DNA of 64,000 bases from the NCBI RefSeq assembly GCF_053078305.1, contig NZ_CP166879.1; one strand, given 5' to 3'. Under the pieces are notes generated by a model, which was not told the origin of the DNA, searched no databases, and saw nothing but the letters and a program-made list of their open reading frames with translations. Position 1 is the stretch's first letter. Each line of letters begins with the position of its first letter. Both the position numbers and the translations under genes were made by a program. Below are positions 52,093 to 52,268 of this stretch, piece after piece.

Positions 52093-52268
52093 CTGGCGAA
52101 GAAACGCCGGTGACATACAATTAAAGCATCAACACCAACCGGAACCTCCACCACGTGCTCGAATGAGGTGTGTTGACGTCGGGGGAAACCCTCCTGTGTA
52201 CCAGCGGGATAGAGAGAAAGACAAAGACCGGAAAACAAACTAAAGCGCCCTTGTGGCGCTTTAGTTTT
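52093..52268 (+). ncRNA. ryjA: Candidate small RNA (RyjA-like) in the ghxP-soxR spacer, antisense-oriented to soxR
   Basis: Plus-strand -10 TATACT at 52081-52086 with TGACAA about 19 bp upstream; plus-strand terminator hairpin aaagcgcccttgtggcgcttt plus T-run at 52241-52268; I recall an sRNA at this position in K-12. Confidence 0.3.

Follow-up and report, generated by a model that had tools for sequence, protein, structure and literature searches.

The small RNA gene sraL/ryjA in the ghxP-soxR spacer of an Escherichia coli genome: its ends, its promoter and its overlap with soxR

We analysed a stretch of Escherichia coli DNA of 64,000 nucleotides (the window). In this window, ghxP (yjcD) and soxR lie on the minus strand and are separated by a spacer of 545 bp (51716..52260), which extends from the start of ghxP at 51715 to the stop of soxR at 52261. 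This spacer length, given in a first-pass annotation of the same DNA, was confirmed from the coordinates of the open reading frames (ORFs). The spacer is the site of a small RNA gene, which is convergent with soxR, and the gene order is the same as in strain K-12. The genes at the locus are as follows.

50366..51715, minus strand: ghxP (ORF list)
52128..52268, plus strand: sraL/ryjA small RNA gene, 141 nt (Rfam RF01408, identity with K-12 ryjA)
52261..52725, minus strand: soxR coding sequence (ORF list, K-12 annotation)
52811..53134, plus strand: soxS (ORF list)
53137..54732, minus strand: pdeC (ORF list)

When the whole window was scanned against Rfam at gathering thresholds, 52128..52268 on the plus strand gave a full-length match to sraL, RF01408 (153.3 bits against a threshold of 39, E = 1.1e-34, model positions 1-142 of 142). 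Rfam labels this family "Hfq binding RNA". The curated record of E. coli K-12 MG1655 has the ncRNA ryjA (b4459) annotated at 4277926..4278066. In a pairwise alignment, window positions 52128-52268 were identical to K-12 ryjA at 141 of 141 positions, both ends coincided, and the gene occupied the ghxP-soxR spacer as in K-12. The first-pass annotation had proposed a homologue of K-12 RyjA here, on the plus strand and antisense-oriented to soxR; the full-length Rfam match, the K-12 annotation and the complete identity all agree with that proposal.

Compared with SraL/RyjA of K-12, the gene itself shows no difference, and the flanking genes, orientation, terminator, overlap with soxR, promoter type and consensus structure are also the same. 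The 140 nt upstream differ from K-12 by 6 substitutions, none of which falls within the -10 or -35 boxes. The small RNA gene at this locus is already known: the annotation of SraL/RyjA in E. coli K-12 dates from 2001, an Rfam family is devoted to it and two of its targets are published. We put the probability at about 0.97 that 52128..52268 is sraL/ryjA, encoding a 141-nt trans-acting, Hfq-associated small RNA of Enterobacteriaceae with a sigma-S-type promoter and a terminator common with soxR.

A 585-bp spacer query matched 5420 of the 5426 complete genomes of E. coli, mostly at 95-99% identity. The 141-nt sraL was at least 99% identical in 5400 of the 5420 matching genomes, so the small RNA is the best-conserved part of the spacer. 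The curated K-12 record has ryjA; in the RefSeq records of E. coli annotated by PGAP, soxR alone is listed under the match. Because PGAP omits sraL in the E. coli records examined, a scan based on annotation would take the spacer for empty.

A few E. coli genomes depart from this pattern. In NZ_CP104123.1 (4382793-4383536) and NZ_CP159689.1 (612634-613377), the 585-bp query was found in two pieces across 744 bp, which places about 159 bp of inserted sequence between ghxP and sraL. In about 12 of the 5420 genomes, less than 80% of the small RNA was covered in one piece. For example, in strain 405 (NZ_CM132948.1, 4659632-4659743) it was matched in two places, with 79% in the larger, which suggests that sraL is interrupted in this strain.

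For comparison at the species level, 120 loci were collected from contigs of one genome per species by exact match to the core GTCGGGGGAAACCCTCC. This core lies in the central domain of the RNA and served as search bait, so that its invariance is by construction. In 99 of the 120 loci, a full-length sraL homologue with enough flanking sequence was present, nearly always with a convergent soxR immediately downstream. The homologues came from Escherichia, Citrobacter, Enterobacter, Klebsiella, Kosakonia, Leclercia, Cedecea, Buttiauxella, Mangrovibacter and others. About nine of the 120 loci (in Desulfovibrio, Limnothrix, Thermoplasmata and others) had neither sraL nor soxR; they matched the 17-mer by chance and were dropped. 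Promoter conservation was assessed in a 100-sequence alignment of positions -140..+175; the structure and the counts of conserved blocks are based on 91 non-identical species-level sequences.

Several other features were seen in the window. Three boxes of the type GCAAACGTT are present on the plus strand within 150 bp upstream of ghxP (51832-51840, 51875-51883 and 51974-51982), two of them exact and one with 1 mismatch; the whole 64-kb window has 4 exact copies. They look like PurR operator half-sites, and a PurR motif upstream of ghxP has already been reported by Sastry et al. 2019 (PMC6892915). Beside one PurR-like box, in the upstream or leader region of ghxP, a 7-bp inverted repeat with a 10-nt loop (TTGCGAC...GTCGCAA, 51804-51810 / 51821-51827) was noticed by eye and may be due to chance. 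Further away, thirteen Rfam matches to naRNA4 (RF02564) form tandem arrays at 1678-2161 (plus strand) and at 4638-4718, 33648-34285 and 44819-44890 (minus strand); these arrays are clusters of extragenic palindromes of the REP/BIME type. A match to SECIS_2 (RF01988), a bacterial selenocysteine insertion element, was found at 31125-31179 on the plus strand (87.1 bits, threshold 70); the gene around it presumably encodes a selenoprotein, for instance a formate dehydrogenase.

The 3' end of sraL is formed by a strong hairpin.

52237..52267, both strands: intrinsic terminator, probably bidirectional, with a 13-bp stem (6 GC pairs) and a 5-nt loop (terminator scan, folds)

On the plus strand, the U-tract UUUAGUUUU follows and overlaps the stem; on the minus strand, the U-rich tract UUUAGUUUGUUUUCC stands beside the hairpin, on the side that would serve soxR. 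The terminator scan listed the hairpin on the plus strand only, because its T-window rule fails after the full-length stem on the other strand. When folded directly, the hairpin formed on the minus strand too (z = -2.9, with 0 of 200 shuffles as stable). The stem is almost invariant across genera, and RNAalifold detected UA<->GC covariation in 6 sequences. Because the hairpin also folds on the minus strand and is followed there by a U-rich tract, it is reasonable, and the straightforward reading, to regard it as a bidirectional terminator for sraL and soxR.

The first-pass annotation had suggested such a shared terminator and had placed the 3' end of the small RNA at 52268, which is exactly right. 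It had also described a strong hairpin with a T-run at this end, abutting the soxR stop codon. The hairpin and the T-run stand, but the stop codon TAA (52261-52263, minus strand) is part of the stem, in its 3' arm, and the preceding Asn codon (AAC) also belongs to the stem. Instead of abutting, the two genes thus share 8 nt (52261-52268), which is also the case in K-12.

With an 8-nt coding overlap and a fully common terminator, SraL might act mainly in cis, as an antisense regulator of the 3'-end formation or stability of soxR mRNA. The convergent arrangement, kept in about 97 of 99 homologous loci, would fit such a role, although vertical inheritance could also explain the synteny. Because both transcripts end at the common hairpin, their complementarity is limited to the terminator, which is already self-paired in each RNA. 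In addition, the SraL literature that we consulted describes no effect on soxR, and the published targets are regulated in trans. We thus consider a main role in cis improbable.

Two elements upstream of sraL make up its putative promoter, which spans 52093-52124.

52093..52098, plus strand: -35-like element CTGGCG, with family consensus CTGGCA (read from the sequence; alignment columns)
52116..52124, plus strand: -10 hexamer TACAAT (52116-52121) with TAA (52122-52124), an extended -10 of sigma-S type (conservation)

In the 100-sequence alignment, the positions T-A-n-A-n-T of the -10 hexamer were kept in 89-100% of sequences (T89 A100 n A100 n T100 for the hexamer and T83 A96 A78 for the TAA), and the hexamer ends 7 nt before the +1, A52128. 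The -35-like element, separated from the -10 by a 17-bp spacer, was more degenerate (C72 T86 G77 G98 C69 A61/G37), as is usual for sigma-S promoters. Apart from these boxes, 52093-52127 was poorly conserved. The -35 is too degenerate for the sraL promoter to be listed by a sigma-70 promoter scan; we assigned the promoter instead from the conservation and the annotated +1. Judged by sequence, these features match those published for the sraL promoter, namely a conserved -10, a TAA motif and a degenerate -35, typical of RpoS promoters (Silva et al. 2013, PMC3753932). In E. coli, RyjA transcripts start with A (PMC12956327).

The first-pass annotation had placed the 5' end at 52093, while flagging the exact ends as uncertain, and had named a hexamer TATACT (52081-52086) as the -10. 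The -35-like element begins at 52093, and both the K-12 annotation and the Rfam model begin at A52128, so the 5' coordinate is unsupported. The hexamer is indeed present; its proposed role as a -10 did not hold. A longer small RNA of about 176 nt, driven by TATACT and starting near 52093, could be imagined, since this hexamer resembles the sigma-S -10 consensus and a minor upstream start is compatible with the sequence alone. However, TATACT lies 42 nt upstream of the +1 and was identical in 2 of 100 aligned Enterobacteriaceae sequences and gapped in 10, the base of the window being kept in 12-45% at each position. In the sigma-70 scan, no two-hexamer site joining it to a -35 partner passed. 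Together with the A reported as the transcription start of ryjA in the E. coli literature, the annotated and modelled starts and the poor conservation of 52093-52127 outside the promoter boxes make the longer RNA highly unlikely.

Farther upstream, 50-90 nt before the +1 of sraL, the A-rich tracts GATAAAAAATC, ACAAAAATAT and GCTAAAAAG (52036-52079, plus strand) are partly conserved across genera. This region, where the alignment is less reliable, could be UP-element-like or could bind a regulator.

Within the RNA, the following structural elements and sequence blocks were distinguished.

52128..52177, plus strand: stem-loop 1, with outer stem 52128-52134 / 52171-52177 and inner stem 52145-52148 / 52165-52168 (RNAalifold)
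52139..52147, plus strand: near-invariant block CCGGAACCU (86 of 91 species-level sequences)
52152..52161, plus strand: predicted tig 5'UTR-pairing bases CACGUGCUCG, 7 bp + 3 bp with tig -29..-19 (accessibility-corrected hybrid)
52178..52222, plus strand: central three-way domain, with closing stem 52178-52180 / 52220-52222 (consensus structure)
52181-52183 / 52189-52191, plus strand: hairpin 2 (consensus structure)
52192-52197 / 52204-52209, plus strand: hairpin 3 (consensus structure)
52206..52231, plus strand: near-invariant purine-rich block GGGAUAGAGAGAAAGACAAAGACCGG, with A-R-N-like repeats, mostly unpaired (block counts)

The consensus structure obtained with RNAalifold from the 91 sequences has 35 pairs, 10 of which show compensatory double changes. 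It consists of the 5' stem-loop, the central hairpins and the terminator, the same helices as in the Rfam consensus line. Four outer pairs of stem-loop 1 (alignment columns 4-7) keep pairing through two-sided changes: AU<->GC in 20-24 sequences at three pairs, and CG to UA, GU or GC in 8 sequences at the fourth. Compensatory changes were also found in hairpin 3 (CG to UA in 4 sequences, GC to AU in 5). As a single sequence, the whole molecule folded only mildly better than its shuffles (z = -1.9); a modest z-score is normal for small RNAs with long unpaired stretches.

The block at 52139..52147 is partly unpaired in the partition-function profile: its 5' part is single-stranded, while its 3' CCU belongs to the inner stem of stem-loop 1. 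It is a candidate for a conserved seed or a protein contact. Within the purine-rich block at 52206..52231, AAAGACAAAGACCGG was present in 78 of 91 sequences and GGGATAGAG in 73 of 91, with high unpaired probability. We infer that this block contacts Hfq and/or targets, the role of Hfq being drawn from general knowledge of small RNAs. The heptamer ACCGGAA occurs twice in SraL (52138-52144 and 52227-52233, plus strand), once in each near-invariant block, and both copies are present in 37 of 91 homologues.

The tig-pairing bases, located in the apical part of stem-loop 1, are in contrast the least conserved part of the small RNA (52152-52161; alignment columns 26-44). In Kosakonia, Phytobacter and genera related to them, this loop is shorter or missing, and its sequence in E. 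coli differs from the family consensus. Because the pairing heptamer GUGCUCG was found in only 18 of 91 species-level homologues, the regulation of tig may be restricted to some lineages.

Two further readings of the region find almost no room beside these data. For a small protein, three ORFs exist mechanically (52055..52243, 62 aa; 52170..52547, 125 aa; 52008..52274 on the minus strand, 88 aa), but none has a Pfam match at E <= 1, they are intact in 6, 14 and 3 of 99 homologues with the start codon kept in 45, 63 and 29, frameshifting indels are frequent (length differences are mostly not multiples of 3), and the 125-aa ORF runs antisense to soxR as a shadow frame; the first-pass annotation had taken the first two ORFs as probably non-coding. 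It is just as hard to believe that the plus strand has no independent gene and that there is only a soxR terminator beside a non-functional spacer: on the minus strand the hairpin is indeed of use to soxR, and PGAP annotates nothing but soxR under the match, but the conservation of 52128-52236 extends over about 100 species, with stems that covary and single-stranded blocks that are invariant, a conserved -10 stands at the right distance, and experiments have already revealed the transcript, of about 140 nt, in Salmonella and in E. coli, including K-12 with its identical sequence (PMC3753932, PMC12956327, PMC5389530).

What SraL does has been studied mostly in Salmonella. There, stationary phase induces SraL, ChIP shows that RpoS binds the sraL promoter in vivo, sraL lacZ fusions depend on rpoS, and the RNA is less stable without Hfq (PMC3753932). 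SraL represses the mRNA of tig, which encodes trigger factor, by pairing of its 5' part over 7+3 bp with a site just upstream of the tig ribosome binding site (RBS); gel shifts and compensatory mutations made in the chromosome proved this pairing (PMC3753932). For the second target, Silva et al. 2019, as cited in PMC6582626 and PMC12360218, reported that SraL, by pairing with the rho leader, keeps Rho-dependent termination from occurring prematurely. RyjA of E. coli is a polyadenylated RNA and one of those with the strongest up-regulation in a pcnB mutant (PMC5389530).

We looked for the corresponding pairing in the E. coli sequence. When full-length SraL was paired with the tig and rho leaders in RNAduplex, the duplexes took in the whole molecules, were meaningless and did not surpass those of shuffles; a scan of windowed hybrids with opening energies was used instead. 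The top accessibility-corrected hybrid joined SraL nt 25-34 to positions -29..-19 of the tig leader, taken from K-12 rather than from this strain, with a total of -10.3 kcal/mol. Its 7 bp, one-base bulge and 3 bp fit the published geometry (PMC3753932). For the rho leader, the best predicted site paired SraL nt 35-47 with rho -243..-231. The energies of these short hybrids were no better than those of shuffled small RNAs, which did at least as well in a fraction of 0.72 (tig) and 0.12 (rho). As these energies are indistinguishable from chance, the rho site stays a prediction only, and the tig and rho mechanism rests on the published experiments.

Taken together with those experiments, the features of the locus would fit the following course of events. 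sraL would be transcribed from the sigma-S-type promoter (CTGGCG, 52093-98; TACAAT+TAA, 52116-24) with A52128 as the +1, and the transcript would end at the intrinsic terminator (52237-52267), where transcription of the convergent soxR would also terminate. SraL would accumulate in stationary phase. Through the loop of stem-loop 1 (52152-61), SraL would pair with the tig 5'UTR at a site immediately before the RBS and lower the level of trigger-factor mRNA, and, according to the citing papers, pairing with the rho leader would prevent premature Rho-dependent termination there. The RNA would then be turned over via polyadenylation by PAP I.

SraL of Salmonella Typhimurium is an orthologue, and its RpoS-type promoter features, Rho-independent terminator and 7+3 bp pairing with tig also appear to be available in E. 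coli. The repression of tig, the antitermination of rho and the RpoS ChIP were all worked out in Salmonella, whereas in E. coli the regulation is inferred; the functions involving tig, rho, RpoS and Hfq would operate in this E. coli strain as well. The action on rho resembles that of DsrA, ArcZ and RprA on the rpoS leader: these are likewise RpoS-dependent, Hfq-associated small RNAs linked to stress or stationary phase, and by pairing within a long 5' leader ahead of the RBS they stop Rho from terminating transcription too early. They differ from SraL in that the sequences and targets are unrelated, the target of SraL being rho itself.

As a discovery, the finding has small value, for SraL/RyjA has long been annotated and has published targets. 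Its outcome is a clean annotation, with the ends at 52128-52268, a corrected promoter and an 8-nt overlap with soxR. In the family, near-invariant, largely unpaired blocks stand against a variable tig-pairing loop, and therefore a family-wide function may use the blocks. A stronger version, in which an ancestral function shared by the family works through the blocks CCGGAACCU (52139-47) and GGGAUAGAGnGAAAGACAAAGACCGG (52206-31), which include a duplicated ACCGGAA, and tig is a lineage-specific addition, or in which the terminator couples SraL to soxR in cis, seems to us rather unlikely. The conservation itself suggests that the family-wide function may use the near-invariant blocks, through Hfq contact, a protein partner and/or further conserved targets, which is a lead and not a finding. 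For studies of SraL targets, the difference in conservation between these blocks and the tig-pairing loop may thus provide a modest lead.
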